A stretch of 64,000 nt of DNA from Amphiscolops sp. MND2022 (lineage: Eukaryota). Of this stretch, positions 4,746 through 63,813 are shown in pieces. The notes beneath the pieces were generated by a model, which saw nothing but the letters and a program-made list of their open reading frames with translations, did no database searches and had not been told where the DNA came from. Positions within the stretch are counted from its first letter, which is position 1; each line of letters starts with the position of its first letter. The stretch spans positions 69,876,001 to 69,940,000 of the forward strand of contig OZ076409.1 in the NCBI GenBank assembly GCA_964187785.1. Reading direction: 5' to 3'. Both the position numbers and the translations under genes were made by a program.

Positions 4746-5274
4746 AACAAGCCGGGAACAGCCCAAGTCGGCGTCATATCTAAGACTCGAAAAGACTCGA
4801 AAACGAAAACCACTTTTTCTACAACTGGAGACAACAAAAGCTCTCAAAAAACTAAAAATTGAGGAAAAAATTCTGAATTTTTTTCGAAATTTTTTTGAAG
4901 TTTCCGGTAAGTCGGATAGCGCCAAAAAATGTAAAAGGGGACGCTTTGGGATTTTTTGAACATCCATTCTGTTGCAAAATATCAAAAATTGATGGGAGGA
5001 ACAATAAAAAAATTTCGGAAAAAAATCAGTTTCACAGCGCCAAAAAAGGAGGAAAGTCTCACAGTGTCGAAACAAGTGGACCCTTCTGCTTTGGAATGGC
5101 TTTTCATCTCATGTTAGAGGCTTTGGATGCGTTGAAAATGAAGTACTAAGTACATATGGTAAAAGTTGGTAAATGTGCAATAATGCACAAAAAGTGGGCG
5201 TTTCGCGTTGAACTGACGAAAAGAAATAGCCACTGTAAGAGTCGGGATTTTCTTCGGAAACGCCGACTAAAAAA
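4746..5274 (-). mobile_element. Non-autonomous Helentron/DINE-1(HINE)-like element
   Basis: One end AACAAG (CTTGTT on -), then a short GGG..CCC stem and AGTCGGCG (4766-4773). Other end has the inverted CGCCGACT (5261-5268) inside a hairpin AGTCGG..CCGACT, followed by an A run. Same architecture recurs at 5278, 30248 and 47662. Confidence 0.6.
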
Positions 5275-32100: not shown

Positions 32101-35100
32101 GTCACATCATTGCAAATTTTGGCTTCATGAAAAAAAATTCAAGCAATTTTTTCAGAGATAGTCTATATAGACAGTTATCGGATTATCAGCATAGTCATTA
32201 GCAGTGTTTCAAAATGAGATGAATTTGAGAATGGAAACAATGGATCAGCAAACAAAGACGGCACAGAAGAGCTCTCTTAGTATGCGGAAATAACACCGCA
32301 AAAAAGTTAAAAGTTACATCCCCAATTGAAGCGGCCGGGCAGGCAGTTTTTCATGGTGCTTTCATGCATACAAGGCTATATATATATTCTACGGAACATG
32401 GAAAATTCCTNNNNNNNNNNNNNNNNNNNNNNNNNNNNNNNNNNNNNNNNNNNNNNNNNNNNNNNNNNNNNNNNNNNNNNNNNNNNNNNNNNNNNNNNNN
32501 NNNNNNNNNNNNNNNNNNNNNNNNNNNNNNNNNNNNNNNNNNNNNNNNNNNNNNNNNNNNNNNNNNNNNNNNNNNNNNNNNNNNNNNNNNNNNNNNNNNN
32601 NNNNNNNNNNTGACAAGATTGGTTCAAAGAGGCCCCAGCGAGTTTTGAAACCCTGATTGTCGTCTTTTAAACGCGTTAGAAACTGTTTGTCAGACTTGAA
32701 TACTTTGGGAGATATTGCGGTTTAAAGTTTAAGCACCAGATTTTTGGACGGATCCCGAAAATTAAACCTCCATTCCGGGTTAAATCAAACTTTGATTTTT
32801 TTTCTAAAATTTTAAAATTAAAAATTTGAATCAAAGATCTTTTTCTTCACCGTATCGATCATTTTTTGTTCTCACACTTTATTAATTTCTCAAGCACCTC
32901 TATTTTGTTATCATTGTTAGTCTATTAGCACTCTAACTACGCTACTATGAAACTTGACAGAAGTTTACTTGTTTCAAAATGGAGGCGCGAATAACGTCTA
33001 AAAATAACTTCTAAGATCCTATGTATAAAAGTAGGAAATGATCATGACTTGGTTTTAGACGTTATTCTCGTTTGCGGTAAAATTGATGAGGTCTCGGCTG
33101 CATCTGAAAATAGAACTGCTTTTATGAAATCTCCAAAACTTCGTGGCTCTGAATCCACGCCAAATTCAGGATCATTTTTCAGGATCTTGATAAAATTCAA
33201 TGGGAATAGTGAAATTTTAATGCATGGAAGCTTCTGCGACTTTTCTATGAGAGCATGAGAAATTTGCTTGGCAAACAACAAAAAATTGTAAAAATTCAAG
33301 AAGTGTTAATAAGGGAAAACAGAAGAAAGAACTACATAGTGGAGTAGCTTCTCTGCAATTAAACTCCAGAAATTGAACGTTTTTCGTGAACAGCCGAACT
33401 GTCTTTCTTTCAAGATTTTAAGGATTTTAAAACTTTTGACAACAGAACAATAAACCACTACGGCGGTCCATTACTTTATAAAGACTGACTAACAATTCTA
33501 GTGGCCGTTTCAATCATCTTTTTTAGACAACCGTCTCTCAACGGAAGTGAAAGCATATATGCTTTCACTTCCGTTGAGAGACGGTTGTCTAAAAAAGATG
33601 ATTGAAACGGCCACTAGAATTATTGGTCAGAGTCGCTCGGGCGGTTCAAAAAAACAATTGACAGCGAAATACTCAAAACCAAGTTACCATCGAGTTGCTT
33701 GAGAGAAAAGGAAAGAAAATTGCAAGATAAAAACCAGATAAAACGTCAATGAGAGACTGATGACAAAAATTTAATTTGGCCGATTGTCCATGAGAACCGT
33801 CCTTACCGTTCTTGCTAAAAACAGATCCTCGAAAGTAGTTTCCAAGAGGCCGAAACCCTCCACATTATGTGATAGAACATGGGGCACGGTAGAAAACTAC
33901 AGGGTCATTCGAAAATTATGTCTCAAAACTATCTTCAAATTGTGAGAAATTGGTCAAACTTACCAAGAATTTTTTTGTTTTTTATAGAAAGTTCAATAGA
34001 AAACCACTGGCACTTTTGAAAACTTTTTTTTCGGTCATGAACAAACTTATTCAATATTCGAAAGCGATTAAAGCTGTGTGAAGATCAGAATGGAGGTCAT
34101 TTCTAGCACCTCAATGTAGATTAACAAACTTTTTAGGCATCGAAAACAAAAGTTCCATATATTGTTGAAAATCTGTTACAAAGTAGTTACGTTCTAAATA
34201 GTAGTTTTTGAGATACTTGAAATTAATTTCTGAAAGACCCTGTAGAAGAGAGAAAGGCATCCCGCATATGGGGATTCAGCTTGTCAGGCGCTTGACAATG
34301 AGTAAAGAGAAATACATACAGATGAGGCATATTATAAGAAACTATGACACTTTTGCTTTCTTCTTGAAGAATGTCAGCTTTAATATTGAACTCCAACCGA
34401 AATTTTTGGCACTGATAAGGAGAGTTTTTCAGTTACAAAACAGCGGAAAACTTAATACGAGGCCGAATGAAGAAAGGTTAGTCCGTCGAAACTAACTGTT
34501 TGCAGTTTACTAGTTTAAACAAAATTTTGTCTGATTTGATGATTCCTACGTCCAAAAAATTCGGTCTTCATTGAGATAGGCCAGCACACGGCCATTATGA
34601 ATAAAAAAAGAAGAATATCAGCCGCGCATCATCGAATTGGAGAAAAATTCATCTCATCTTCTTATATTGCCGTCACCGGAGAAACAAAATCAGAGGCATT
34701 GAAACATACGGCAAGATTTCCATAAAACACGGAGAGGACGAAGGTTGCGACTTGTTCAAACGGGAAATCTACAGTTGGGATGGACTGTTGGGATCGGCCG
34801 TTGGGATTGACTGAATAACCCTCATTCAGCCTCTTCCTCAGTTTCCCGCTGTTTTTGTAATAGAAAAACTCCCCTTCCAAGGGTCAAAATTTTTGTATAT
34901 TCTCCACGGAAACTCTCTGAGTTGAAAATGAAGCTTGCGATTTGGAAAGAACAAAACTTGTTTTCGATCTAATAAAAACTATGAGTGTATGACCAGAGAG
35001 CTCATGCGCAGAAAAATAAAACTGACCCAACCGCGTTACCATACACTTAAGAGTTTCATATTTCAAGTACACACGGGGTCCCCCATGAAACTTTGAATGA

Positions 35101-36537: not shown

Positions 36538-37333
36538 GTAGGGTTCGGCTGTTACTCACTCCAGTCGTAAGGGGACTGACTGTTGGGAAATACCCCAGCC
36601 TGATCTGGGGTCTCCCTGACCTACTAACAAGTACGATGTCCATCTTGATGTTTGCTAGGTTGTTTTGAATACATTATTTATTGCCAAACCTGAAGATTTC
36701 CATTGTACAAGTTTATTGTGACGATTAAAAAACTGATATATCAGCAACTTTTTGAAAAATCTGTCATTGCGAGTTGTGCCGATTTTTACCTCTGCCATGG
36801 ATTAAAAGTGGGTTTGAATCTAGCTTAAGACTCGAATTACTTTGTTTTTTACTATTTTCCGCCCATATTCCATATGAGAAGGGAAAAGATTAAAATCAAA
36901 CTGTTTTTTACACAAAGTTTGCAAAGCATCAATTATATATTCAAAGTGAAGAGTGTCACCCTCAGAATTCAGCTCACATAAATTTAGCTCGGTGTGAAAT
37001 GTATTGGTAGAGATTATTGGACTTTTTTGAGAATGACGAAAATGACCCCATAATACCAAAATGACACCGATAAAACCAAAAACTCCAAAACTTCCCGATC
37101 TTTACCGTTTTTATGCATTTTTTGTCAAAAATTCACATAGAGTAGAATGCTGAAAACGATCACCAAGGCAAGAATTCGTTGTTTAGTGGTCGTTGATGAA
37201 GCGATAAATGCATTTTTAACCAAGAAAATCACCAAAAATGACACCAAAAACACAAAAAGTCCAAAAATTCCCAATTTTTGTCGTTTTTTACAATTTGTAT
37301 CAAACTTTCGAAAGATTTCGTAAATTAGAATGC

Positions 37334-37591
37334 TGTCACGAATAACTCAATGGATTTTCTGGATGAGTTTATCAATGGACTTTTCATTCCAATCAATTTC
37401 ATGATAACCTTCTCATTCACGACTTATTCACTTTTTTGGTTCTACTTTGCCTTGACTGGTCAGACATTCCTTGCTCTCATTGAATTATGGACATTATCAT
37501 ATAGACTGAATGTAACAAACTATGATGAATGAACGTTGACATTACTGAATAAACGCAAGAGATTTGTAACTAAACCCACCTATTTCTAACA
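37334..37591 (+). repeat. BEL/Pao 5' LTR
   Basis: TGTCACG...TTCTAACA with AATAAA near the 3' end; repeated at 46228. Confidence 0.93.
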
Positions 37592-37605
37592 TGGCGCCCA
37601 ACGTG
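37592..37605 (+). promoter_or_regulatory. Primer-binding site complementary to tRNA-Lys(CUU)
   Basis: TGGCGCCCAACGTG is the first 14 nt of the well-known tRNA-Lys1,2 PBS TGGCGCCCAACGTGGGGC, directly after the LTR. Confidence 0.9.
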
Positions 37606-37872: not shown

Positions 37873-40800
37873 ATGCCAAACAATAGTTCCAAACCCAAAC
37901 CAACAATCGCTCTTCGCAATTTCCAGTTTGTTCAGATTCGCCACATCCACCGTCAAATAAAAACGGCGGTTGATAACCAGGACACTTTCTTTTGCATCCA
38001 AAAAGCCGAAAGTGATAGTGAACGTCTTCTCTTAGACGCCCACGATTCCACTACATACTTGATTGACAATGTGCCTCAGGACACCACAGCAGAACAAATA
38101 ATGAATGATCTCAAGGATCTCCAGGATGAATCCTACGCTGTGATGAGACTCTTAAAACAATCTCAGCTTCAGCATACCACGACAACTGGAAGCAATTCTC
38201 CATCAACCAGCACTGCTGTACCTCCCAACCCACAGTTGTCACCGCAAGTAATAACGGGTTCATCTGACAACAATCCGCACACGTCTCTGAGCAATGATGT
38301 CCAAACGTCTAATGCGAGTTGTCCGAAATTGAAAATTACTCCATTTGACGATAACCCAATGAACTGCAATCTCTGGTTCGGTTTATTCAAAACCTTGATT
38401 GATAGTAAACCACTCCACGATGCTGAGAAGATGTCACACTTACAAACGTTGACAGTCGGTCGTGCCAACGAAGCAATTCGCGGCTTCTCATGGAACAGTT
38501 CGATGAACCAGGCTGCTTTAGATGAATTTGAACACCGTTTTGGGCGGCCTGACATAATTGTCAACAGTTTCCTTGACAAATTACGTACTTTTAAAACGCC
38601 AAGTTTCCAAAATCCAACAACATTCATAGAATTCTCCTCGTTTGTGAACAACTTAGTAGAATGTTTCCGTCATTTAGGATTTGAGAACGATCTGAATTCG
38701 ACAATTTACACTCAAATCGCAGCTGATAAGTTGTCGCTGAATGACCGCCTTTGTTAGAACGAATACATTGTACAAAATCAGATTACACGTGTAACTCTGT
38801 TCGATTTCAACCGATGGTTACGACAATTTGCACTAGCTTGCGATCGGATGCCAAATGTGACGCAATCCAACCGCCCCAACAACAATATCGACAACCGTCC
38901 TCGTCATAGTTCTCCGTCTATGCGACCTGACCAACCTAAATGTCCTTTCGATAACCAAAACCACTACCTTGGACATTGTGAAACCTTCAAAAAGACGTCC
39001 GCTGGAAGTAGAAAGAAGAAATGCCTTGAACAGAAACGTTGTTTTAACTGCTTGGGTACACATACAGTAAAGGAATGTAAAAGTCAATTTCGATGTAAAT
39101 CCTGCAACGGTACGCATCATACATTGCTCCATGAGCCTTCATCATGCAATGAGAAACGACACCCTAGTCAATCGTTAACTACCATTGATAGCCACAACGC
39201 ACTCAAAGGAAGTAAGCCTTCACAACTACTTCAAGTGCTACCCGTATCTGTGAGTTCGAACGATATTACCCTCAACACGTACGCTCTGCTCGACATGGGT
39301 AGCACCTGCAGTTTTCTTCTTCAGGACTCAGCCGACAAACTCAATCTTACTTCTCGACTAGCGCAACCAGCCGAGCATATTTTTGTCAAAGGCATGCATA
39401 AATCCGTGGAACTTGAGGTACACCCAGTCAGCGTTCAAGTCAAAGGTTTCGCAATGGAGTCCCCCGCAACTGACATCAACAACTTACTTGTTGTAAACAC
39501 CCTGAAGTTCGATCACGCGTCGTCCGCAGTTTTGAACAATTTGTGTGAGAAGTATAGCCATTTGAACAATTTCACATTTCCATCGTTTTCCAACAATCAA
39601 ATCACTATGTTGATAGGAATAAACAACTTCGATTTGATTGTGCCAACTAAAGTTCTCACTGGTCCTCCAAATACACCTAGAACAGTTGAATGTCAACTTG
39701 GCTGGAGCATTACTGGACCAAAAAAGATCAACAAGATTTGCACTTCATCAACGACACTTCACATCTCAGTCCAGTCTGAAGATGATAAACTGTCGAATTT
39801 GGTGTCCACTTGGTGGCGACTAGAGTCACAAGCCACTTCTCGGGAATTAGCTCCTTCCAAAGATGACCGCCGCGCCCTAACAATATTGGAAAAAACGACC
39901 AAACATGTCGATGGTCGTTATGAAGTTGGCCTTCAATGGAAGGAAAACGCTGCATTGCCAAATAATTATGCCGCTGCTGTAAGTCACTTCATCAAAACTA
40001 AAGAAAAACTTGAAAAAGACGAAAAACTATTCAAACTCTACTCAAAAACAATTTCCAACGACATTGAACGAGGTTTCATCCGCAAAATTGATCACATTGA
40101 TATACCTGAAACGGGTTGCCTGCTACCAGAACATCCAGTAACTAATCCCAATAAACCGGGTAAGGTCCGCAGAGTTTCGAATGCTGCCGCGAAATATCGA
40201 GGTGTTTGTTTAAATGACATGCTTTTAACGGGCCCTGATCTCCTTGCAAATTTAGTAGGCGTGATATTCAGGTTCCGGGAGAAACCAATACCAATTTCTG
40301 CTGGTATCGAAGCAATGTATATGCAGGTTTCCGTTCGCCCTGAAGATACAAAATTCTTCCGATTTCTCTGGGGGAAAGACGAAGCTCAAATGTACGAAAA
40401 TATGCGTTATGTTTCCGGGGCAAAGTGTTCACCAACTTGCGCTAACTACGCCCTGCAAAAATGTGCTTCAGATCAAAAGAAAATTTATCCAGCTGTTCAC
40501 AGAATAGTTCATGAAAACTTTTACATGGATGATTTGTTTCTTTCAGTTGACACAATAGAGGAAGCAAAGTCTGTTATCAACGATCTAAGAAACGCTCTGC
40601 GACAAGGTTTCAATTTAACAAAATGGGTCAGCACTAACACATATGTTCTCAACTGTTTGCCGAGCGATGGACTTAGAGCGCCTCCAGGTAAACAAAATTC
40701 ACATGACCGTGTACTTGGTGTGCCTTGAAATTTAAACGAAGACACCTTGAGCTCAAAAATGACTCCGATGAACCTCGTCAGATGTGACATGACACAGAGA

Positions 40801-43062
40801 CAGCTATTGCAGGCAATTTCTTCGATTTTCGATCCTCTTGGAATTGCAACCCCTGTAACTATTCGACTTCGGATGATATTGCAAACTGTTTGGCGATCAG
40901 GAAAGAGCCCTTGACGGCTGAAATGTTTCCCAGTTTGAAACAAATTGCCTCTGAATTGGTCTGCTTGCAACCGCTAGCAATACTGCGACAATACTTCATT
41001 AGCGACAAACAGTCAGTAGACCTTCATGTGTTCTGTGACGTCTCATACGCCGCTATATGTGCTGTTGCCTACTTTGTTCTCAATCAAGGTGATACAATTA
41101 GTGTTGTTTTCGTTTTCGGAAAAGCTCGAGTCGCTCCCATTAAACTGCAAACTATTACGGAACTTGAATTGCAAGCTGCTCTTCTGGGATCACGTATCTC
41201 AAAATTTATTTGTCGTGAGCATCGCATCACTTTGTCTCGTACTTTGTTTTGGACCGATAGTAGTACTGTTTTGCAATGGATATACGGTTCCGCTAATCGA
41301 CAGCAAATTTTCGTTGCCAACCGAGTGGCCGAAATTCTTGAAACATCTCAGCCCTGCCAATGGCAACACGTGCCTGGAATTTTAAATCCAGCTGACGATG
41401 ACACTCGTGGGCTCAAAGTTTCTGATTTAAGGTCTCCTCCCGTTGGTTTACTGGACCTGATTTTCTTGCAAAGAAAGAAAGTCACTGGCCGGTAAATAAC
41501 ATTCCCACTGCACCATGTACCGAAACGCAGGTATTGTTTTTTGCCAAAGCAGACTTTAGACGTTTTCCAGAACCACTATTTAATAGCAACCGTTTCTCTA
41601 AATGGAACCGCCTCCTCAGATGTTGTGCCTTTGTTCAGAATGCCATAGCTAAACTCCGAAAACATTTGTCTACGACTGCTACTGCTCTCACCGCCACTGA
41701 TAAGCAGAACTCCCGCATCATTTTATTTAAGATATCTCAAGAACAGGCTTTCCACAAAGACATCATGTCGTGGAATCCACTTTCCCTTTGTTCGTCGGGT
41801 AACCGCTTGGCAAAACTCTCTCCTTTTCTTAATGAAAACGGATTACTTCGATCACGCAGTCGCCTCGCGAACTCCCAATTTGACTACGCGGTTAAACATC
41901 CCATTATTTTGGACGCGAAAGATCCACTTGTCAGACTCTTCCTTTTTCAAACGCATTGCGACAACCACCACTCAGGCGTTGAACATACTAGAAATACCCT
42001 TCAACTGCATAACTGGGTTTTTTTTGTCGCGCTGTTCTCAGACAGGTAATAAATGCTTGTCATGCTTGTCGGCGTCAGAAAGCCGCCGGTCTTCAACCTC
42101 AAATGGCAGATCTTCCCCTGTGCAGGTTTCCTACCGATAAACCGTTTCCGTTCCTTCATTGTGGTCTGGTTATTTTTGGTCCTTTTCCAGTTTTCAATAA
42201 ATCCACGGATCCAGTGCATCAGAAACGCTATGGACTCTTGATCACTTGCTTGATAACCAGAGCGGTCCACGTGGAATTAACATACAGCCTGTCTGCGGAC
42301 TCCTTCATAAATAGTTTCCGACGTTTGGTCTCTCGTCGAGGATGCCCTCGTAGCATAAAGTCTGACAGGGCCACCAATTTAGTGGGTGCTAACAAAAGTC
42401 TGAATGAAGCCATCAAAGTCCTGAACTCCTCCGATATTGCCAATTTTTTTGCAGTCAAGGAAATTCATTGGGAATTCAATCCCGCCTCAGCACCGCATTT
42501 TGGCGGTGTTTGGGAGCGCCTGATTTGGTCATTCAAAGACTCTATGTATTCAGTCATTGGCTCAAAAATGCTGACAGAAGAAATTCTTTTGACAGTTTTT
42601 GCTGAAGTCGAAAGCTTTCTCAACGCATGACCTTTGACGTATGTCTCTTCTGATCCTGAAGATATTGAGTCTCTTACCACTACCCATTTTCTTTTAGGAA
42701 AACCCGAGTTGAATGCTCCTCTTGGTATCTTCGAAGTCATCGCTCCTTTAACCAGACAATGGCAATACGCTCAAAAATTGTAATCATACCTATGGAACCG
42801 CCTACTGAAAGAATTTGTGCCTTCCTTGCGCCACCGCACAAAATGGACAAATAAATCACGTAATTTGAAACCAGGCGAACTTGTTTGGATTTTAGAAGAC
42901 AACACACCTCGTGGCATTTGGCCTGTTCGTCGGATCATCAAGCCTTTGAATTGCAATCGGAACGACCAGATTAGAAAATATGAAGTCAAAACAATCATGG
43001 GTAAAAGGACAATGGCTACTGTTAATTTAGCCCCTATTTTAGATGAAATTAATGCCATTTAA
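37873..43062 (+). pseudogene. BEL/Pao gag-pol polyprotein (gag, Cys/His knuckles, protease, RT, RNase H, integrase, C-terminal DUF5641-like), disrupted
   Basis: PKLKITPFDDNP..AEKMSHLQTL; CFNCLGTHTVKEC..CKSCNGTHHTLLH; ALLDMGS; LNDMLLTGPDLL..FYMDD; HVFCDVS..GKARVAP..LELQAA; QMADLP..RAVHVEL..SDRATN..GGVWERLI; KWT..LKPGELV..PRGIWP. Confidence 0.92.
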
Positions 43063-45649
43063 ATAATGTCCTCTCAAATTCACGAACTCAACGTTACATA
43101 GTTTGTATCATTTCAAGTTTCTGCTTTATGATCAATATGAGGTATCATACCTTCAAGTCTTCCACGACAAAGAATCTTTTGATTTCGGATTCTCAAGCAA
43201 AGAATCTTTTCTTCTCAAATTTCAATATTTTATCAATTCCTGGGGGGAGGATCAAGGACGTTTGGTTATTTCTACCGTCTCCTGGTGAATATGAAATAAT
43301 AGTTCTGTTCATTGGAGGAAATGACCTTTTCGAGTTCCAAAGACTTTCCGGGACTTCCTCCAAGAGCGCAGCTGACCAACTCAGTGAACTTGCTGAACAT
43401 TTAAAAGAGTTATCGAGTAAAGTTTTCATCATTGGCATTCCTCCTGGTATGAATCAACCTGAACGCTCCCTGGCAGTAAACAGTCTATTAGCTGAAACAT
43501 CTTCATACGTGGCTGATGTGCCTGGAATTTTAAATCCAGCTGACGATGACACTCGTCTTCTCAAAGTTTCTGATTTAAGGTCTCCTCCCGTTGGTTTACT
43601 GGACCTGATTTTCTTGCAAAGAAAGAAAGTCACTGGCCGGTAAATAACATTCCCACTGCACCATGTACCGAAACGCAGGTATTGTTTTTTGCCAAAGCAG
43701 ACTTTAGACGTTTTCCAGAACCACTATTTAATAGCAACCGTTTCTCTAAATGGAACCGCCTCCTCAGATGTTGTGCCTTTGTTCAGAATACCATAGCTAA
43801 ACTCCGAAAACATTTGTCTACGACTGCTACTGCTCTCACCGCCACTGATAAGCAGAACTCCCGCATCATTTTATTTAAGATATCTCAAGAACAGGCTTTC
43901 CACAAAGACATCAAGTCGTGGAATCCACTTTCCTTTTGTTCGTCGGGTAACCGCTTGGCAAAACTCTCTCCTTTTCTTAATGAAAACGGATTACTTCGAT
44001 CACGCAGTCGCCTCGCGAACTCCCAATTTGACTACGCGGTTAAACATCCCATTATTTTGGACGCGAAAGATCCACTTGTCAGACTCTTCCTTTTTCAAAC
44101 GCATTGCGACAACCACCACTCAGGCGTTGAACATACTAGAAATACCCTTCAACTGCATTACTGGGTTTTTTTGTCGCGCTGTTCTCAGACAGGTAATAAA
44201 TGCTTGTCATGCTTGTCGGCGTCAGAAAGCCGCCGGTCTTCAACCTCAAATGGCAGATCTTCCCCTGTGCAGGTTTCCTACCGATAAACCGTTTCCGTTC
44301 CTTCATTGTGGTCTGGTTATTTTTGGTCCTTTTCCAGTTTTCAATAAATCCACGGATCCAGTGCATCAGAAACGCTATGGACTCTTGATCACTTGCTTGA
44401 TAACCAGAGCGGTCCACGTGGAATTAACATACAGCCTGTCTGCGGACTCCTTCATAAATAGTTTCCGACGTTTGGTCTCTCGTTGAGGATGCCCTCGTAG
44501 CATAAAGTCTGACAGGGCCACCAATTTAGTGGGTGCTAACAAAAGTCTGAATGAAGCCATCAAAGTCCTGAACTCCTCCGATATTGCCAATTTTTTTGCA
44601 GTCAAGGAAATTCATTGGGAATTCAATCCCGCCTCAGCACCGCATTTTGGCGGTGTTTGGGAGCGCCTGATTTGGTCATTCAAAGACTCTATGTATTCAG
44701 TCATTGGCTCAAAAATGCTGACAGAAGAAATTCTTTTGACAGTTTTTGCTGAAGTCGAAAGCTTTCTCAACGCATGACCTTTGACGTATGTCTCTTCTGA
44801 TCCTGAAGATATTGAGTCTCTTGACACTACCCATTTTCTTTTAGGAAAACCCGAGTTGAATGCTCCTCTTGGTATCTTCGAAGTCATCGCTTCTTTAACC
44901 AGACAATGGCAATACGCTCAAAAATTGTAATCATACCTATGGAACCGCCTACTGAAAGAATTTGTGCCTTCCTTGCGCCACCGCACAAAATGGACAAATA
45001 AATCACGTAGTTTGAAACCAGGCGAACTTGTTTGGATTTTAGAAGATAACACACCTCGTGGCATTTGGCCTGTTCGTCGGATCATCAAGCCTTTGAATTG
45101 CAATCGGAACGACCAGATTAGAAAATATGAAGTCAAAACAATCATGGGTAAAAGGACAATGGCTACTGTTAATTTAGCCCCTATTTTAGATGAAATTAAT
45201 GCCATTTAAATAATGTCTTCTCAAATTCACGAACTCAACGTTACATAGTTTGTATCATTTCAAGTTTCTGCTTTATGATCAATATGAGGTATCATACCTT
45301 CAAGTCTTCCACGACAAAGAATCTTTTGATTTCGGATTCTCAAGCAAAGAATCTTTTCTTCTCAAATTTCAATATTTTATCAATTCCTGGGGGGAGGATC
45401 AAGGACGTTTGGTTATTTCTACCGTCTCCTGGTGAATATGAAATAATAGTTCTGTTCATTGGAGGAAATGACCTTTTCGAGTTCCAAAGACTTTCCGGGA
45501 CTTCCTCCAAGAGCGCAGCTGACCAACTCAGTGAACTTGCTGAACATTTAAAAGAGTTATCGAGTAAAGTTTTCATCATTGGCATTCCTCCTGGTATGAA
45601 TCAACCTGAACGCTCCCTGGCAGTAAACAGTCTATTAGCTGAAACATCT
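41370..45649 (+). repeat. ~2.13-kb tandem duplication inside the BEL/Pao element (41370-43502 and 43518-45649)
   Basis: The ORF set repeats with a 2,147-2,148 offset; about 14 differences by eye; 15-nt filler TCATACGTGGCTGAT at 43503-43517. Confidence 0.97.
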
Positions 45650-45889
45650 CTTTCTACAACTGCATGGCAATTCCGAGGAATATCGAGTTCTATTTACAAT
45701 TGTGATATTCACACAAAATCAGATGATGTACATCTTACTGAGAAAGCACTGAGCGGTATCAAATCAATTCTAAAGAAAAAGATACTTCGAAATCGATTCA
45801 ATGCAGTTTTAGACAATGTTGGTCATACAAGTTTATCTATATCTTCAAGGAAGTGCAGATGTGGATCTGCAAGAAATTCTTATTGCTGA
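45275..45889 (+). CDS. SGNH/GDSL-hydrolase-like protein (204 aa) encoded after pol in the BEL/Pao element
   Basis: Block I LLISDS, block II SIPGG, block III VLFIGGNDL, block V DDVHL in the expected order and spacing; uninterrupted frame. A truncated copy lies at 43128-43502. Confidence 0.8.
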   Translation: MINMRYHTFKSSTTKNLLISDSQAKNLFFSNFNILSIPGGRIKDVWLFLPSPGEYEIIVLFIGGNDLFEFQRLSGTSSKSAADQLSELAEHLKELSSKVFIIGIPPGMNQPERSLAVNSLLAETSLSTTAWQFRGISSSIYNCDIHTKSDDVHLTEKALSGIKSILKKKILRNRFNAVLDNVGHTSLSISSRKCRCGSARNSYC

Positions 45890-45927
45890 ATCAAAGTTCC
45901 GTCAATTTTGAGATACTTACTGCTTTC

Positions 45928-46071
45928 TTCAGTCCCGGTACTTTTTTTAAGTTCCACCGGCTAAACTATTCGCAGTTTTTTCAGCCCCGGTACTTGTTTA
46001 AGTTCCACTGGCTGAAGTATCCGCAGCTCTTTTCAGCCCTGGTACTTTTTTAAATTCAACTGGCTGACCGC
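45928..46071. repeat. ~3 diverged ~52-bp tandem units in the BEL/Pao 3' region
   Basis: TTCAG(T/C)CC(C/T)GGTACTT..TTAA(G/A)TTC..C(C/T)GGCT repeated three times. Confidence 0.8.
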
Positions 46072-46227: not shown

Positions 46228-46485
46228 TGTCACGAGCGACTCAATGGGTTTTCTGAATGAGTTTATAAATGGACTTTTCATTCCAATCAATTTCATGATG
46301 ACCTTCTCATTCCCGATTTATTCACTTTTTTGGTTCTACTTTGCCTTGACTGGTCAGACATTCCTTGCTCTCAATGAATTATGGACTTTATCATATAGAC
46401 TGAATGTAACAAACTATGATGAATGAACGTTGACATTACTGAATAAACGCAAGAGATTTGTAACTAAACCCACCTATTTCTAACT
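46228..46485 (+). repeat. BEL/Pao 3' LTR
   Basis: Direct repeat of 37334-37591; terminal CA altered to CT. Confidence 0.92.
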
Positions 46486-47661
46486 CATTCTAAGTGATAT
46501 GTATTGGTAGAGATTTTTGGACTTTTTTGGGACTGACGAAAATGACCCCATAATACCAAAATGACACCGATAAAACCAAAAACTCCAAAACTTCCCGATC
46601 TTCACTGTTTTTATGCATTTTTGTCAAAAATTCACATAGAGTAGAATGCTGAAAACAATCACCAAGGCAAGAATTCATTGTTTAGTGGTCGTTGATGAAG
46701 CGATAAATGCATTTTTAACCAAGAAAATCGCCAAAAATGACACCAAAATCACAAAAAGTCCAAAAATTCCCAATTTTCGTCGTTTTTTACAATTTGTGTC
46801 AAACTTTCGAAAGATTTCGTAAATTAGAATGCTGATAACAAGGCAAGAATTTGTTGTCCAATAGTCTTTCCCGACTGAAAATATCTTTCCCAAAAACAAG
46901 TTCTGTTTTCCTAATGAAAAAACTTCAAATTGGCAACGAAAGTATCAAATCGAAACCATTCAAATTTCTGTGGTTTTGATGCAAATTCTGAACAATTTCT
47001 GAGTGATTTCATGGCCTAGAAATACGAAACGTTCAAAATTAAAAAAAAACAAGTCATGTAGTAAGTACTCTTTTTGACAAGAACGTTGCAGCGGTTTGCT
47101 TCAAAAACACTTCAGAATGACACAAGTGTGTCGAACAATTTCAACATACTTTTTGAGACAAAAATTTACTTATGTGCAACTTAGGTGTGCTTTTTGAGTT
47201 ATTTCAGAGTAAGAGTGTTGGAAAACGTTCAACAATGACTGCACTGAAAATACAGCAAGCTTTTTACGACATATTTGCAGAGTTTGGTTGGAATTGACTC
47301 AAAATTAACAACAAAATGTCGAAAGTATCAATAATTTTTTCATTTCTGACATTTTCAGTGATTTTATACTTGCGATAAAAGAATTAGATGAGATAAAACC
47401 TCCAGATGGTACAACTGGATGCGCATTACGTATTTTAAAGAGATTGTTTCCTCAGACTGACCCAAAATAGGCTGAAAACACTGAACTTTTGAGCTTTTGA
47501 CATTTTAAAATTCTCTGCATAAAAAGGTTCGAAATCTCAGCAACGACTAGTTCGGGTATCCAGTTTTGAAAATAGAATTGCTTTTTTTACGAGAATTGGC
47601 CTCAGAAACACTCCAGAATAAAAAAGACAGAAATGTGCGTTTTTTGACACATTATTCCCAA

Positions 47662-49550: not shown

Positions 49551-52500
49551 GAAACATAGAATAAATTAGTCATAAAACTACCAAATAACAAAGTAGCCCT
49601 GCGCCACAAACAAGAACTTCAAACACTACGATAAATTACCTAAAATCTTTAACAGACGGCCGTCCAAGATTCATGTTAGCCTAACTTTGAGGAAACACTT
49701 AAATTAAAAACACGGTAAAAACCTAATTGTTTTGTTGAACTATGTGGATAGCAGGACCTATTACGAATGCAAAACTTCGCAAAAAATGTCAAAAAAGTGG
49801 TAAATTCTGGTTTTTTCTAAAAGTTTGGGATCATTCAGAGGAACTTTCTTAACAAGAAACTACAGTTGTCTCTTCTATAAAGCCTACCGGATACCGAGCT
49901 CAGTCGTTGTTGAATGTTTACCCCAGTTCTAATCCACGGAACGGCTCGAAAAGCTTACAGAGTTTTGCATAAAAACGTGGAAAAAGTTTTGAATTTTGAA
50001 TCATTCTGAAGTTTCCTTCCGTTGCAGGAAACTGCAAAAATATTTTCCTTTGGAATGCCTACTGCATAGCTAATGATTTCGCTTGGAGCCTATTGAACGT
50101 TAAATATTCGAAAAGTATGGTCAAACAAATATACAATAGGTTAACTAAAACGTGAAAATGATGACATTTTCCGACTCTTTTGGGTCATTTTGAAGCAAAA
50201 CGCGGCAAAATTCTTACCACTAAGGCGTACTGCAACGTCAGTTCTCTCATTTTCGATACCTTTCGATTTTCTAACTTTTCGGAGATTCTACCTCTACAGA
50301 AAATGTAGGAAAAACCGAGAAAAACTGGAAAGTTTTGGATTTTTTGGCATTTTCTGGATTAATTTGTGATGTTTTCTTTTACGACAGACTACTGGACAAC
50401 GAATTCGTCCCTTGTTGAACGCTTTCAACATTCTAATCCATGAAGTCGATCGAAAATTCGACACAAATTGCATTAAAGCTTTGATAGCTGATTTTTTTAG
50501 AATTTTTCTTTTTGGGTCTCAATTTGAGGCATTTTTTGAAAATCTCCCGTTATCGATTCACAAAAGACAACTAGACAACGAATTTTTTTCTCCTGAACGT
50601 TTTTAACATTGCAATCCACGCAGCCATTTAAAAATTTGACAAGTTTCATAAAACTTCAAAAATCTGAAAGTTTTGGACTTGTTCTCGAGTCATTCCGGAG
50701 TAATTTTGGTCAGGCCCAAAAAAGTCCAAAAATCTGTACAAATACATACCGCACGAAGCAAAAATGATGAGTTGATTTTAATGGGCGACACTTCAATTTG
50801 AATGAAAAAACGCAACACAGATGATGATTTTCCTCCCCATTGAAAATTTGGGTCGGAAAATAATAAATTTGGAACATGGCAATTTTTGTATAAGATGGCT
50901 GCCATGGAATATGGGCGGAAAATAATAAAATATTCGGACCGTAGTTAACAAGAAGCTCACGCTGAAAAGTGTGAATCTATTTGCTTTTCAAAATTGATTC
51001 GGCAAGTAGTCAATTGTTCAGCCAGCAAAAATTGCAGTCAAGTCTGAAACGCTGAGATGTTTTTCAACTGAGTTTTCATGTTCCAAAAGTTCATTTGAAT
51101 ACTCATAATTTGGGAACATGTAGGAGCAAAAGGAATGCAATGAGTTCCATTTCATTTTTTTCAAGAAAATTACTGATTTTGTTTAAAATGGATCTTTCTT
51201 TACTAGAAGTATCAAGCGATACGACTTGGGCTGTTCACTGCTTGTTACTCATAATTATCTGGACACTTGAAAGAGACTTGAACCTAAAGATCACAGTTCG
51301 AAGAGCAATAGTCAAAAAAGTTGTACGTTTTTAGGGAAGATGGAATATTCAGGTGGTTGGTTCCGTATTTTTATACAAATGAAACAGACTAATTGATTGA
51401 TTTTTTTCAAAACACCGAACACAACCTAAGGATGTATCTGATTCAATGTCGTACCGACAGAGCTGCCAAAATGTGCCCACACGAATTCGAAAAGGCGATG
51501 AAACTTGAGACAACTGTGAATGGTGGCTTCAGCGCTGAGATTGGAATTAAGGCCACCTGAGTGCTGTTCAGAGGAGTTCGGATTGAAACATTTGACGTAG
51601 CCGTTCCACAAAGTCGTTAGTACGTCACCTTGACGCAGATTTAATTAGCTTATAATTAAAATTATAGCTCGCATGAAAAAGCAGTAACATGGCGTTTGCA
51701 GCTTGGACATTTGCTACTAGATTTTTGGTTTAGTAGGGTCTAGGTTTTTGTACTTATTGAGAACACTGTAGGTAGTGATTGATCATTGATTTTCAGATTT
51801 TTCGATCCTAGATAAATCCATTCTGTGATTTAAAAAGTTTCTTTCTCAACCGGAATTCAAGATTCAGTGGGCCTTAATTAAGCCATATTTCTTGTTTATT
51901 TGACAGTTGCAAGCGATATATTTCGTATATGCATTGCAAAGATGAACAGAAGATGGCTTCACTATCAGAGATTGGAAGATCCGGTGATTGAGATGTGTTG
52001 GACCAAATCACATGGGACGCAGAGTCGTCTGCAAACTACCAACGGTGTGAGGCTTCCAAACCAGAGTTGACCTTAGAACAAGAAAGGTAGTCCTGCGAAA
52101 AAGAACACTTTGAAATAAGTGATCTTTGAACTCTTACCCAAATGTTTCATCACCTTTTCAAACCAAGTTGACAAAGCAGTAATTGAATAGACCCTTTGTG
52201 ATCAGAAAAAATTGTTTTCGTCTTAAGGCTTTGGAGCGGTAGATGTTCGATTACACTTGAAAGCTTTGTGGGTTGTCGGTCTCATTTTTTTTCAAACAAA
52301 TTCTCCTGAAATATCATCAGACGATTTAAATCCGTAGTTCTGAGTTTTTGTCTACAGAAAAGAACATTCCTTTCAACTCAAATAAAAAACAATAAAGTAA
52401 GTAATACTTAAATTGCACAGCAACTAAAAACAAGAACCAGTAATGGTACTATTAATAATAAGACCAAATTTCACAGTAGTAATGTAGTTGCAGTAACAAT

Positions 52501-55522: not shown

Positions 55523-58500
55523 TCACGTGTGCGATGAGGAAGTACTAGGAGCGGACTGGGCGGGGACGGCTGCCGAACTGGAACTAGTGGAAATAGCAAC
55601 CGTGGCTGCACTGGAAAAGGTCTCCCTGATAAGCAACATGAGTTTCTTCTTGCCAGGATAACAGGTCATGAGATTGACAATCAAGTGATTGAATCTCTGC
55701 CTCCCGTTCTCTGCGAGCTGAAACGTGTCCCTAGCTTTATGAAGCAACGCCAAGAAGTCAGTGTAATGTCTTGGGCTGATGTGCTGCAGACGGGCTCGGA
55801 TTCCAGTAACATACGCAGTCAAGGTGGCTTCCAGAAGTTCGCTAAGGGGTGGTTGGTTGATGTTGAGATAGCGGCTCATGTAGCCACCGTTGGGCGATTT
55901 GGATCTCTTGTTGTCCATCACATGCGAAGCGGACATCGTGCACCTGCGCAAAATGTCGGAAAGGACATTTGCGCACTGCACACTGTTGATGACTTGTCGC
56001 AACGTAGACGCTATTTCCATTTTGCCCAGCTGGAAGCTAATGGCAACTGCCCAATGAACATCGCTAACTGAGGGATGGGTCTCCTGACTGGATCCTATTT
56101 TGAGACGCTTCAAGGCCACTATAGATAGCTTATATGCCCGATATCGGTGCATTCCTTGCTCCATAAATCTGGCAATAGTGAAGAGTTGACTGGAAGACAA
56201 AGCGTTCGGTGGCGCTTCCATAACTATCTGATAGGCAGTTTCGAAGGCGGGTCTGTCGTTTTCACAAAATTTCAAAGCATAAATAGCACAATTAGCCGGG
56301 TCCTTTTTCGTACATTGAAGCACCAATGTTCTCGTACAATTTTTCAGTTCTTGAATTTGCGTGAAGTTCAGTTGCAGCCTCATTGGGGTGTCACGACTCA
56401 TCACAGTTGAGGCGAAACTGTTGGTTGCTTCTTTGGCAGTTAGGAAGTTAGACCAAGACTGCATCATAGAAATGAGCGCCCCAGCTCCAACGTCCATGGC
56501 GCAATTTATTTGCCATGAGACCATCTCGTTTCTTCTCCACGTAGAAGCCCGCAGAGTGATTCGCAGTAGCTGCAACCCCAACTCGAAGGCAACATTCAAC
56601 AGAGTTTTCTTACTACTTGAATCTACTGAACCGCCTGTGGCTTTCTTGTGAATATCTTGGGCAAGAGAGAAAAGGTGAGATGCGCTTTTGAGATGACATT
56701 GCACAGCATCCAGCACCTTTTTGATGAAAGGCATATTGTCGTTGGCACCAATGAACATAGAAAGAGCTAGCTCAACTTGGCGGGACTGAAAGTTGCCCAA
56801 GGTATACCAACGGGTGTTCTCTGCATTGAACATCAGACTTTCAGTATCATCGGTAGTTTGGTTGTTATCAGTTACTGGCAATCTCAACCCAAGCACCCCA
56901 ATCTCATAGGCAAGTTCTCTTTCGACGTGCACCAACATCTCGAACAGATACTTGCATAGAATCTGCATGGGCACACTTTCAGCATGAACTTGTTGTGACA
57001 ACCCATTATTGAATCCTTTCATAAGTGCCTTTGCAACAGTAACCAAAGTTCTCACAATTCTACTGTCCATGCTAACAGCAGACAGCTTCAATATGATTGC
57101 TTCTTCGGCTCGACAAAGACGTTCTTGGGCATAGAGCCCTGCAGGTAGCAACCGATGTTGACTAAGTCCCAACATGGCAACCTCGAACGCCAGACAAAGA
57201 TAGGAATCCTCATCTGCCGCTGATCGAGGACTGAGTCCATCGGGAATGGGTATATGGATGTACTTTCCTGCCGATGTGTTGGAATTGTCCTCTGAAACCT
57301 CTAGTAACAGGTCTACCAAGGCGATAATGGGCTCAGACGGGTTTCCGATCCAAGATTCAGCACGTTCTATCAATGGGTCGTCACTTCGGCGATTTTTATT
57401 AACCTTTTTTCTCAGTCGTCGTCTCAAACTTCTGATGACAGCTAGAGCTAATATTAAGGATTCGTTTTCGAAGCCGTTACATCTGAGAGTATCGACTCGG
57501 CAAGTGGCCACTGCTAAATCTTCATCCCAGTACTTTATTTCAGGCGATCTACCGATTGCACTATCATCTGGAGCTGATGACATTTTCAACAAGTTTTTCA
57601 ACTGGTTGTCGTCCCATGTCAAATTATACACATCTAAAGCCCTACTGAAGACAGTTCGTTTTTCATCAAGACTGCAGTCGTGATTTGGCAGATCGGGGTT
57701 TTCTAGAGGACATTCAGGTTTAGCATGCCATGCCTGCAGACTATTGAGCCAGGAAAGTTTAGTTTGCTCGGAGCACAAAGGATTAAAGACTACAACTAGC
57801 CACATGTAACCCAAAGTATCCCATAAAATTCGTGTTTTTTCAGTCATCACACTACCTTGCGAGTGCCAGATTTTAAGCTTCGGATCCGATGCGAATTCCT
57901 GTGTTATAAGTTTCAGCATCCGTGGTCCATTGGAATCTCTAGCTTTCAGCATTTCTTTGATTTTTGAAAACATGCATTTCAGTTGTTTAGCCGAATTGCA
58001 ATAACCACCTTGCGATAAGTAGAACCGAACTTGCTCTTGTACCTGGCATTCGTCGATAAAATAACAGTTTTCGGCATCTTTGCTGGCTCCAGCAGTCGGA
58101 TCTGGAAATCCATTCAATGTGCTGATACTTGAGTTTGGGCTGAGAAGAGAGTCAACAATTTGTTGACACGTTGGCAATATGTCGCGATGATGAGAAGCGA
58201 TAGTGTACATGCACAATTTATGCAATTGATGCTTGCTGAGTTGTGCGAGGGATTCCGATATTGGAAGACGATATTTAACTTCGTTAGGACACCTTATTCT
58301 AAATAAAGCTAAAGCTACAACATGGGTGCACCAGAAAATATCCTTGTTCTCGCAAGTACAAGACACGGAAGTGATTTTGCACCTATCGAACTTTATTGAC
58401 ACTTTGAACTGTTTTTCGTCGTTTAGGAAGTCAAAGTCGGAAGAACTCGGTTTAGCATTGGGCACTTGAATGACGCCGCTGAGATGAAAACCCACTTGCA

Positions 58501-58909
58501 AAGCTTCTCTAACGTTGCCCTCGCTGAGGAGCCTGATTGCTCGGTTGAATTGCTGTTTGGGTCCTGAGACTGTCTCCATTGCACCAGAAAAAGCACACGT
58601 GTATTTCATCGAATCTGTAGCACCAACTGAGGAGATAGACGAGTACATTCGAATTTCCTCTTCATTTCTGGGAAACGACCAATAAATAATCCGTAGTTGT
58701 ACCGCTTCTGGAACCGGTGAAAACCGATCTTCGACTGTTTGAAACGGAATTGAAACGGCTACGACTTCAGCACAAATATCGAGCAAAGAACGGCAAGTAA
58801 ACTGAGAAACACAGCAGCGTTTAGCGTCTGGTTGTTTAAGGGGGCTTGACTTCAACTTTCTCTTTACACGACGACTTTGAGGGTTTGATCCATCCATCCG
58901 CAAGGACAT
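55523..58909 (-). CDS. Zinc finger SWIM domain protein of the ZSWIM4/5/6 family (1,128 aa), single coding exon
   Basis: Intact ATG..TGA ORF; BC-box/cullin-box-like SLLDICAEVVA..PEAVQLRIIYWSFPRNE; LQVGFHLSG; SWIM finger SCTC..IFWCTHVVAL; LNGFPDPTAGA; LFTIARFME; RLQHISPRHY. Confidence 0.93.
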   Translation of the reverse strand: MSLRMDGSNPQSRRVKRKLKSSPLKQPDAKRCCVSQFTCRSLLDICAEVVAVSIPFQTVEDRFSPVPEAVQLRIIYWSFPRNEEEIRMYSSISSVGATDSMKYTCAFSGAMETVSGPKQQFNRAIRLLSEGNVREALQVGFHLSGVIQVPNAKPSSSDFDFLNDEKQFKVSIKFDRCKITSVSCTCENKDIFWCTHVVALALFRIRCPNEVKYRLPISESLAQLSKHQLHKLCMYTIASHHRDILPTCQQIVDSLLSPNSSISTLNGFPDPTAGASKDAENCYFIDECQVQEQVRFYLSQGGYCNSAKQLKCMFSKIKEMLKARDSNGPRMLKLITQEFASDPKLKIWHSQGSVMTEKTRILWDTLGYMWLVVVFNPLCSEQTKLSWLNSLQAWHAKPECPLENPDLPNHDCSLDEKRTVFSRALDVYNLTWDDNQLKNLLKMSSAPDDSAIGRSPEIKYWDEDLAVATCRVDTLRCNGFENESLILALAVIRSLRRRLRKKVNKNRRSDDPLIERAESWIGNPSEPIIALVDLLLEVSEDNSNTSAGKYIHIPIPDGLSPRSAADEDSYLCLAFEVAMLGLSQHRLLPAGLYAQERLCRAEEAIILKLSAVSMDSRIVRTLVTVAKALMKGFNNGLSQQVHAESVPMQILCKYLFEMLVHVERELAYEIGVLGLRLPVTDNNQTTDDTESLMFNAENTRWYTLGNFQSRQVELALSMFIGANDNMPFIKKVLDAVQCHLKSASHLFSLAQDIHKKATGGSVDSSSKKTLLNVAFELGLQLLRITLRASTWRRNEMVSWQINCAMDVGAGALISMMQSWSNFLTAKEATNSFASTVMSRDTPMRLQLNFTQIQELKNCTRTLVLQCTKKDPANCAIYALKFCENDRPAFETAYQIVMEAPPNALSSSQLFTIARFMEQGMHRYRAYKLSIVALKRLKIGSSQETHPSVSDVHWAVAISFQLGKMEIASTLRQVINSVQCANVLSDILRRCTMSASHVMDNKRSKSPNGGYMSRYLNINQPPLSELLEATLTAYVTGIRARLQHISPRHYTDFLALLHKARDTFQLAENGRQRFNHLIVNLMTCYPGKKKLMLLIRETFSSAATVAISTSSSSAAVPAQSAPSTSSSHT

Positions 58910-59474
58910 TTTTCCTCCACTTACACTTTACAATCAAAAGTACATATTCATCCACCTGAAAATATCGAATTTCGATGATTAGATAACAACGAATACAATC
59001 TTGAAAACGATAGGAGCTTGAGAACAACGCACCAGAGCTAACCGGGTTGTAGAAATCAATATGTTGCAAAAATGAATTAATACTAACTTACATTTTTCGT
59101 TTTCAGCCAAATTCGAACCAAAAACTAAAAGATCGATTGAACAGACTTCATTTTTGTGTCCAAGTTACTATCTCAGCTAAGGATGCCGTATTCAACCGGC
59201 TTCTGTCAGTTGTAAAACTGAGTGAGTCACTGGGGAGTAACTTCCGCGCATTGGTTCTGATTAAGACCCCGCTCAGGTGACATATCTGGTGCTATGTAAG
59301 TCATCAGGTACGGGGGGAGGGGGAGATGACACACCCGTGGTCTGCAAACGAAAGGAAACGAATATATATATTTTCAAATATCCCCAATTTGCGGGAGGGT
59401 GTTCATCGTATATAAATAGTACAAAGAGAGCATTGAGAGTTGGATAAAGTTAAGTTAGGATTTAATGATGAGAG

Positions 59475-62400: not shown

Positions 62401-62615
62401 TTCAATAAAACTGCGACGCCCCCAGAACTTCCACCCATAGAACTGATTCTTGTGTAATTGTCGAATAGATTTGCGCTAATTTGTGTCTTGGTTTCATTAA
62501 GAAAAACGATATCAGCTTTGGTTTGTTGTAAGTATTGATTCAATGCTATTTTACTATGATCACTCAGGCCGCATATAGTCATCTGCAAGAAAGTGAAACC
62601 AGAGTTAGCCATCAT
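59475..62615 (-). pseudogene. LINE ORF2: AP endonuclease, reverse transcriptase, C-terminal cysteine motif; frameshifted
   Basis: DIVFLNET, GDLNARH, SVIDL; RPLSISSHIGKTLE, QEGFR, IDLEKDFDSV, GVPQ..LSPLIF, FADD; CHCG..ETTEHFFLAC. No RNase H seen. Confidence 0.9.
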
Positions 62616-63813
62616 TTTTTGACACAGGGTTTCTCATAGTCGGCGCTTGTAGACCTCGTGCCTCATGAACTCTTTCCACCTGTTTAATATAAGTTGGGCA
62701 GTCAAGAGAATCAGCTTCGTGGCTTCCGCTGCAATTTGTACACCTGGCAGGCTGATTACCGCTGCAGTTGTCGATAGAGTGCTCGCCGGAACAATGTTTG
62801 CATGAGACTTTCGAATGGCAATTGGAACTGACGTGTCCGAATTTCTGACATCGGTAGCAACGGAATATTCGTAATCCTTGCTGTATGAATTCGACTGGTT
62901 GATAGTACAAATTAGTCAATGAAAATCCCGTCGGTTGTTGCCTTGTCAAACTGGGCTTTTGAGGGAAACGTCAGTTTGACAATTTGCAGTGTTTTTCCAT
63001 CGCTTCTGACAAAGCGTCTGATTCTGACACCTGGAAAAAATTCCGTAAGAGCTGAAGTCAAGTCCGAGTCGGACACTTCTAATGGAACTCCCCGTATTAC
63101 TGCGCTGTGCTGTTCATTCCTGTCACTAGCTCTCCGAGCTGACGAGTCGCCGCCAAAAAAATCAGCCCTCCAACCCTGCAAAACACAGTCAGCCTCCTCT
63201 GGTGTTGTAAACTCAAGATGTATACTACCACGTGCTGTAATAAAAGCGTATAGTAATTTTTTGTTTGGATAAATGGAAGCGAACCCTCTTTTGATTTCGA
63301 TACTATCCCGGAATTTCTGATTTGTCTTGTTGAGCAATATGTTGCGAGGATCACGATTTCGTCTTTTTCCACTTCTGATGTCAGTTGTAAATTTCGTTTG
63401 AGTTTCGTTTCGATTAGTTTTTACTTTATCCGCATAGTTCTCGAGAGGCTGAGTTGATGTTGGGTTGTCAAGCTTGAGTTTGATAGTTAATAGGTCCTTT
63501 TTCATGGATTCCGTAATTTGTAACTCCGTTTTTCGCATTTCAGTATCTTTTTTTGTTGTTGATTTATGGCATTCAAGGATTTCCAAAGAACGCCCTGTAG
63601 TTGCTTGTCTTCGCATTTGGAGTAATACCAATGAACAGAGGCATATTTTGAAAGTATTGGAAGGTCCTTTACATCAAGGCCCCCACAAGATCCATGACAC
63701 TATGACTCACATCCGTTGCAACATATTGAATTCTTTTCAGTTTCCTCAACAATACTTTTACATTTGTCGCAACAGTCATCCGAGACTGACTGATTCCTGT
63801 TTTTCGGTCCCAT
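62605..63813 (-). pseudogene. LINE ORF1: PHD finger, central region, three CCHC knuckles; disrupted
   Basis: ATG 63813: CDKC..ICCNGCES*CHGSC..WYYSKC (PHD-like); SAVIRGVP; CYRCQKFGHVSSNC, CKHCSGEHSIDNC, CTNCSGSHEADSLDC. Confidence 0.85.

Follow-up and report, generated by a model that had tools for sequence, protein, structure and literature searches.

Within a 64,000-nt stretch of DNA from Amphiscolops sp. MND2022 (contig OZ076409.1; the whole stretch is called the window below, and positions are counted from its first letter) we identified a BEL/Pao retrotransposon that carries, downstream of pol and in the env position, an open reading frame (ORF) predicted to specify an SGNH/GDSL esterase. 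In our preferred reading, to which we give a probability of roughly 0.65, this gene is an accessory ORF3 of the Pao element, belongs to an esterase family that occurs across retroelement classes and has a membrane-related role. The parts of this reading differ in strength: the SGNH fold, the catalytic set, the position inside the long terminal repeats (LTRs), the linkage, the old selection and the separate ORF are together very probable, whilst a membrane role, drawn from analogy, falls slightly short of an even chance.

The esterase, its predicted fold and its carrier element

The esterase ORF is a real feature of the window. The frame at 45200-45889 (+) is free of stops and contains two ATGs, at 45275 and 45284, for products of 204 and 201 aa, respectively; the pol frame ends with a stop at 45209, leaving a gap of 65 nt to the first of them. 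No frame of ≥ 204 codons arose in 500 shuffles of the 1018-nt stretch from pol to the 3′ LTR. An earlier note on this DNA, made from the sequence alone, had placed a 204-aa ORF about 65 nt past the pol stop and inside the LTRs, and in this it is borne out; as to the start, the first ATG does give 204 aa, but the family begins at the second, where Met was found in all 94 aligned rows with a residue in that column.

In order to identify the product, we compared it with profiles and structures. It passed the Pfam cut-off for Lipase_GDSL (PF00657) marginally (23.7 versus 23.6 bits) and fell below that for PF13472 (19.7 versus 32.9 bits). A search of the Protein Data Bank (PDB) with the single sequence gave no SGNH match, and a viral structure library returned distant GDSL proteins only. 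An AlphaFold model built on 36 sequences, with a predicted local distance difference test (pLDDT) score of 92.5 and a predicted template modelling (pTM) score of 0.90, has the flavodoxin-like, five-stranded SGNH fold. Using VIA, this predicted structure was matched best by a sialic acid esterase (Z 17.0, root mean square deviation (rmsd) 2.1, 159 aligned residues), with PAF acetylhydrolase at Z 16.4 and the top 13 rows within less than one Z unit of each other, i.e. tied; Foldseek placed SGNH hydrolases at the top of its matches to the model, and recovered the esterase of the long interspersed nuclear element (LINE) ZfL2-1 (4c1b) at E 8 × 10−5. A model made earlier from a long-gapped alignment was poor (pLDDT 60.5), and a fold search with it still gave SGNH. 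The nearest solved folds are those of PAF acetylhydrolase Ib and a Bacteroides sialate O-acetylesterase (Z 16-17, rmsd 2.1-2.4); the window protein differs from these cellular esterases in sequence, at 18-22 % identity, and the fold leaves its substrate undefined.

The catalytic set of the window ORF comprises S22, G39, N65 and D150-x-x-H153. Both the SGNH blocks, including a Ser-Asp-His triad, and the SGNH identity proposed in the earlier note therefore hold on sequence, profile and structural comparison. Among 175 aligned rows from 171 relatives, the catalytic columns are kept at S in 125/134, G in 128/144, N in 134/153, D in 73/80 and H in 68/79, against a median column of 47 %. Two C-terminal residues of the window protein, Cys194 and Cys196, are kept in 39/40 and 38/40 rows, respectively, alongside more conserved Cys and His columns; as judged from this pattern, the cluster probably binds zinc and stabilizes the fold, in a region (past residue 173) that the fold search scarcely covered. 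By hydropathy, no hydrophobic segment is present in the three ORFs for which we have DNA, namely that of the window and two described below (maximum over 19 residues 0.9-1.3; window 1.31), and the computed pI is 9.3 for the window ORF and 9.3-9.8 across the three. The ORF is predicted to encode a small, soluble, basic, stand-alone SGNH serine esterase, and its catalytic set is complete.

The ORF and the element that carries it are laid out as follows.

37334..37591, + strand: 5′ LTR, 258 nt, with TG...CA ends, from comparison of the LTR pair
37592..37605, + strand: primer-binding-site-like stretch directly 3′ of the 5′ LTR
37873..43062, + strand: BEL/Pao gag-pol, first pass, with DUF1759, reverse transcriptase (RT), Peptidase_A17, integrase and a DUF5641-type end (Pfam)
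43128..43502, + strand: second esterase ORF copy, cut short after its first 125 codons, product of internal duplication
43518..45649, + strand: second unit of a 2.13-kb tandem duplication, covering the last third of pol and the beginning of the full-length ORF
44931..45209, + strand: C-terminal DUF5641 end of pol with its stop (Pfam)
45275..45889, + strand: predicted SGNH/GDSL esterase ORF3, 204 aa, or 201 aa from 45284
45922..46067, + strand: 2.8 copies of a 52-nt unit in tandem, in the 3′ untranslated part that separates the esterase stop from the 3′ LTR
46228..46485, + strand: 3′ LTR, 95.3 % identical to the 5′ LTR, final base non-canonical
46494..46834, + strand: 342-nt repeat (96 %) of the sequence that directly precedes the 5′ LTR

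The LTRs (37334-37591 and 46228-46485) differ at 12 positions over 258 nt, and the stretch at 37592-37605 may correspond to a tRNA-Lys primer. The order of domains in gag-pol (DUF1759, RT, Peptidase_A17, integrase, DUF5641) is that of BEL/Pao, and all 120 relatives of the window's RT region among the matches listed were Pao-type polyproteins. Possession of LTRs and of a single gag-pol with these five domains is shared with the Belpaoviridae (PMC3118150; here and below, published systems are described from the accessible parts of each source). No short target-site duplication was found at the ends of the element, where the 3′ junction bears the 342-nt copy of the 5′ flank (36994-37335 repeated at 46494-46834, 96 %, a divergence approximately that of the LTRs). 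We read this as a rearranged junction or an assembly error and not as a sign of another element class; the flank duplicate possibly arose by aberrant integration repaired by synthesis, or is itself an assembly error. The same 342-nt block is part of a repeat with inverted copies near 50400-50800.

The copy in the window is dead. With the intact relative P0243 as reference, four in-frame stops and three frame switches were counted in the 5.19 kb of the first gag-pol pass. The earlier note had observed that the esterase ORF remains open whilst gag-pol is lesioned, which is true; nevertheless, seven lesions in 5.19 kb correspond to 0.83 expected in 612 nt, such that the probability of finding none is 0.44 (0.31 with 10 lesions), and the open frame is therefore no evidence of selection. 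The copy deviates from its family at two of 30 columns that are ≥ 80 % conserved, neither of them catalytic. It also contains an internal tandem duplication that had previously been overlooked, in which 41370-43502 recurs as 43518-45649 (2.13 kb, 99.3 % identical, with a 15-nt filler at 43503-43517), so that the pol end and the first 125 codons of the esterase are present twice; this duplication is younger than most lesions of the element. Nothing points to selection on the window copy since its insertion, and any case for function has to rest on the family.

Family members, carriers and selection

A phmmer search of 1.84 billion representatives gave 181 relatives at E ≤ 0.001 and 100 at 1 × 10−10, of which the best 150 of 181 were listed. 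A word-based search returned 26, and a language-model search returned exclusively GDSL-like clusters of eukaryotic or unrecorded origin. The relatives are single-domain proteins of ~200 aa that begin at the family Met, and their clusters bear no informative names. Among 20 clusters that were sized, membership at 90 % identity was four for the window, 40 and 32 for two further carriers (L001 and L002, below) and up to 62 for another. No esterase fused to pol or ORF1 was seen among 206 Pao proteins or among 7996 longer candidates (the latter a weak test), and Pfam detected no adjoining transposon domain in 61 relatives with extensions. Viral contigs contained relatives in 0/352 and 0/11 candidate stretches. 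A bacterial donor was rejected, the one prokaryote stretch of 130 to pass being a 689-aa GDSL autotransporter-like gene that matches block III only. Several esterase subfamilies (P0016, P0021, P0054, P0055, P0110 and P0211) have related sequence upstream of the esterase, translated here as an extension of the N-terminus, which would point to another kind of carrier element.

In metagenomes, three of 195 candidate stretches were confirmed as carriers (L001, L002 and L003). In L001, a 48 % esterase relative starts 663 nt downstream of a DUF5641 pol end that is 29 % identical to that of the window over 31 residues and 49-62 % identical to other Pao proteins. The RTs of L001-like Pao proteins fall on a different supported branch from the window RT (FastTree, 119 rows, without named reference elements), a placement that is indirect, as L001's own RT lies off the contig. 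L002, by contrast with both Pao elements in class, is a full-length LINE (240-5083), in which a 45 % relative occupies an ORF of its own (240-863), with a PHD-type ORF1 downstream of it and then a 968-codon APE-RT ORF2 and a (TAC)n tail; by our own reading it is CR1/L2-like. Its ORF1 gave no L1-ORF1p match among PDB sequences, and look-alike clusters with PHD and Baculo_FP_2nd families suggest that it contains an RRM. A tRNA-like head at the 5′ end of L002 was considered and found no support from ARAGORN or Rfam. A different metagenome yielded L003, which matches L002 at 98-99 % identity and has lost part of the esterase by deletion. A LINE that combines an esterase with a PHD/RRM-type ORF1 may not have been described before.

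Reading through broken copies yielded 98 extensions from 242 proteins. That of P0026, on another contig, leads from the esterase start into the window's LTR (E 5 × 10−14, compared with 0.001 for the best of 100 shuffles), and P0026 thus represents a second, diverged copy of the window's Pao family with the ORF inside the LTR. P0093 leads from the esterase start to the ORF2 region of L002 (94 %), whilst P0069 and P0153 match the 5′ end of L002. Both the linkage to Pao pol in other copies and the capture by an LTR element that the earlier note had envisaged are supported by P0026, which runs into the same LTR, and by L001, where the ORF follows another Pao pol end. In at least two Pao lineages the stand-alone esterase follows pol, and in a LINE it precedes ORF1.

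The three ORFs with available DNA (window, L001 and L002) are 42-48 % identical as proteins, with 33-36 % of third codon positions matching. In all three pairs the proportion of synonymous differences is saturated (pS 0.76-0.79) and that of non-synonymous differences lower (pN 0.38-0.41), which points to long, old purifying selection at the level of the family. The two Pao-borne esterase genes have a GC content at third codon positions (GC3) of 0.31 and 0.35, and the LINE-borne one of 0.57; as this is in step with the carriers (0.39 for the window pol, 0.47 and 0.51 for the L002 ORFs), each gene appears to be a long-standing resident. A tree of 36 esterases is a star, with the three subfamilies of known context on separate branches. 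Our preferred reading is that the family has moved between retroelement classes.

Comparison with known systems and possible role

The concept of a retroelement-borne esterase has precedent in bdelloid ORF3s and in the esterases of LINEs and Ngaro. GDSL esterase ORF3s are described in bdelloid Vesta LTR elements as kin to those of Athena Penelope-like elements; they are without transmembrane (TM) and coiled-coil parts, do not cluster with LINE esterases and were never assayed there (PMC5408684), and two reviews repeat the finding (PMC5718144, PMC6431247). The background assumed in the earlier note, SGNH domains in LINE ORF1 and mostly env as the extra gene of BEL/Pao, was sound as far as it went but incomplete, since GDSL ORF3s had already been published (PMC5408684). 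Like Vesta and Athena, the window element has a separate post-pol ORF3 in the env slot with intact catalytic residues and no TM segment, and here too one type of ORF is common to several retroelement classes. It is unlike Vesta in that the carrier is BEL/Pao rather than of the Juno, Vesta, TelKA or Mag clades, the partner class is a LINE rather than Penelope-like, and the ORF measures 0.6 kb compared, by description only, with GDSL amplicons of 1.3 kb (PMC5408684).

The esterase of ZfL2-1 slowly hydrolyses p-nitrophenyl acetate and butyrate, and binds phosphatidic acid, phosphoinositides and liposomes via surface charge, but not RNA; its His191 and Ser228 are transposon-specific and tied to acyl-chain capture, and among the ORF1ps in Repbase those with an esterase all lack an RRM (PMC3905857). 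Esterase ORF1s are reported from two vertebrate CR1/L2 groups only (PMC4120745). With this type (type IV ORF1p of CR1/L2/RTEX; PMC3905857, PMC4120745) the present family has the SGNH fold and basic pI in common, and the GDS/G/GxND/DxxH blocks align to ZfL2-1 across the whole domain, with a weak profile E-value of 0.066. The differences are that ZfL2-1 unites a coiled coil and the esterase domain in one ORF1p whilst here the esterase is a stand-alone protein of ~200 aa, that a C-terminal cysteine cluster is added and that in L002 the esterase coexists with a PHD-type ORF1. Furthermore, in that same weak alignment, the His191 column is Phe in 133/155 rows and the Ser228 column Leu in 66 and Ile in 43 of 136; given these hydrophobic residues, we do not file the family under the ZfL2-1 lineage, albeit on one weak alignment.

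Ngaro-like YR elements resemble the window element in carrying an extra 3′ SGNH hydrolase ORF of putative function (10.1101/2021.08.05.455354), and differ in their tyrosine-recombinase order with split direct repeats; a Helitron-borne SGNH gene has also been described (PMC4021074). In the BEL/Pao survey, few elements have env, env is the sole extra gene mentioned, and the words 'esterase' and 'hydrolase' occur 0 times in its main text (PMC3118150). Unlike in other BEL/Pao elements, the extra gene would here be an enzyme and not a glycoprotein, and unlike an env glycoprotein ORF3 it shows, by hydropathy (maximum 1.31), neither a TM anchor nor a signal-type segment. A BEL/Pao esterase was not found in a literature search that excluded Repbase, GyDB and most subscription journals, and we think it unlikely, though by no means far-fetched, that one has been annotated before. 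New here are the BEL/Pao carrier, the close sharing between LTR elements and LINEs, a LINE with both types of ORF and the C-terminal cysteine cluster.

Why retroelements keep esterases is a standing question, as the ZfL2-1 enzyme is active and membrane-binding, with its role in transposition unexplained (PMC3905857), and a stand-alone esterase of ~200 aa is a convenient protein for assays. At 42-48 % identity, the sharing between LTR and non-LTR carriers is much closer than in earlier deep cases. It extends the rotifer pattern of gene sharing to two BEL/Pao lineages and a LINE; BEL/Pao joins the list of carriers, and small env-slot ORFs of BEL/Pao families merit re-screening. If L002 is read correctly, a LINE with an esterase and a PHD/RRM-type ORF1 would break the reported mutual exclusion of esterase and structural RNA-binding ORF1, and would allow the role of the esterase to be separated from RNA packaging.

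With regard to this role, we take the esterase of ZfL2-1 as an analogue (PMC3905857). Translation of a subgenomic or re-initiated message would take place in the cytosol, the basic surface of the protein would bind anionic phospholipid membranes, and the protein would hydrolyse short acyl or acetyl esters; hydrolysis may then help particles or ribonucleoproteins to assemble on, or move through, membranes, releasing them. Of the two options raised in the earlier note, a lipid-interacting enzyme is suggested by this same analogy and an RNA-interacting one is unsupported. Deacetylation of a glycan or lipid signal would be equally compatible with the predicted fold. In a wider and more tentative form of the proposal, for which we judge the odds to be somewhat adverse, a stand-alone esterase cassette, separate in origin from the ZfL2-1 lineage and bearing a zinc-like module at its C-terminus, gave rise to dozens of subfamilies and was traded among Pao elements and LINEs of one host group, supplying a membrane or acetyl-ester function independent of element class.

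A number of observations weigh against the reading we prefer. Short-chain acetyl esterases head the structural matches and give no specific pointer to membranes, the two acyl-chain-capture residues of ZfL2-1 are not kept, and both esterase activity and cellular location are predictions by analogy. Of 50 rows covering the full active site, 32 retain all five catalytic residues, although incomplete sets would be expected if many of these rows are decayed copies. Context is known for three of ~30 subfamilies in the tree and, with few of the 181 representatives so placed, most of the family may reside outside Pao. The L001 contig shows 66 codons of pol and no LTR, and the pol-end match of P0026 (6/7 residues, E 0.008) is within noise. 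Finally, the star shape of the tree means that no direction of transfer can be read from it, and L001, L002 and the window may come from different host species.

The strongest competitor, which we nonetheless regard as unlikely, is that the esterase is its own small mobile unit, or mainly a gene of Ngaro-like, Penelope-like or LINE elements, that entered Pao by nested insertion or template switching without gain to Pao. This would account for the unequal spacing past pol (65 nt in the window, 663 nt in L001), for two Pao-borne esterases that are not sisters and whose pols lie on different branches, and for the other upstream sequence that several subfamilies have in common; SGNH ORFs are, moreover, known in Ngaro (10.1101/2021.08.05.455354). 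On the other hand, no terminal repeats, tail or target duplication surround the window ORF, its orientation and slot are identical in two Pao lineages, GC3 tracks the carrier, and the 40 near-identical members of L001 imply many rounds of copying with the frame kept.

Viral receptor-destroying esterases act on cell-surface glycans, and an O-acetylesterase substituting for an envelope could likewise aid the exit or entry of particles. We consider this very improbable. The env slot is indeed occupied, the top structural match of the model is a sialic acid O-acetylesterase (Z 17.0) and an env-like role is left open for the bdelloid ORF3s (PMC5408684), but the sialate match is tied with PAF acetylhydrolase among 13 matches within less than one Z unit, the protein is without a TM or N-terminal hydrophobic segment, and the same family resides in a LINE, which makes no virions. 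It is this lack of a membrane anchor, together with a LINE among the carriers, that makes an env-like role unlikely; the protein is not an env fusion protein.

That the ORF is a neutral passenger, a captured host esterase cDNA decaying with its element, is marginally less credible still. The open frame of the window copy is what chance would give (P 0.44), and within-genome variation of bdelloid ORF3s is near neutral (PMC5408684). Across carriers, however, synonymous sites are saturated whilst the proteins remain 42-48 % identical with catalytic residues kept, and the matches, mostly multi-copy clusters, include no single-copy host-like source; at the level of the family this explanation is largely refuted. 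Least probable of all is a non-catalytic SGNH protein that binds RNA or protein in the manner of Oskar's SGNH domain, for although the pI is basic and inactive SGNH proteins exist (PMC3905857), few columns of the family are better conserved than the catalytic ones, and the basic ZfL2-1 esterase showed no RNA binding in vitro (PMC3905857).

Other features of the window

With a gypsy element, LINE remnants and a ZSWIM8-like gene, the window has the content of eukaryotic, most probably animal, DNA. A 16-kb gypsy-type element occupies 11441-27534, with LTRs of 1.87 kb (95.7 % identical) and a 5-nt target duplication. Between its pol and 3′ LTR lie antisense frames (20055-23416; 589, 226 and 196 aa) with no Pfam match. 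A Cys/His motif in the 589-aa frame may be akin to the BED finger of hAT-like transposases. This antisense ORF was considered as a possible relative of the esterase and is unrelated. A decayed LINE with endonuclease and RT fragments is located at 60644-63673 (-), and a 73-nt inverted repeat without a loop (33485-33630, 97 %) lies near a 200-N assembly gap (32411-32610). A host gene is also present: the 1134-codon open frame at 55526-58927 (-) contains a ZSWIM4-8 C-terminal domain (E 3.5 × 10−57) and is a ZSWIM8-like gene with a very long exon.

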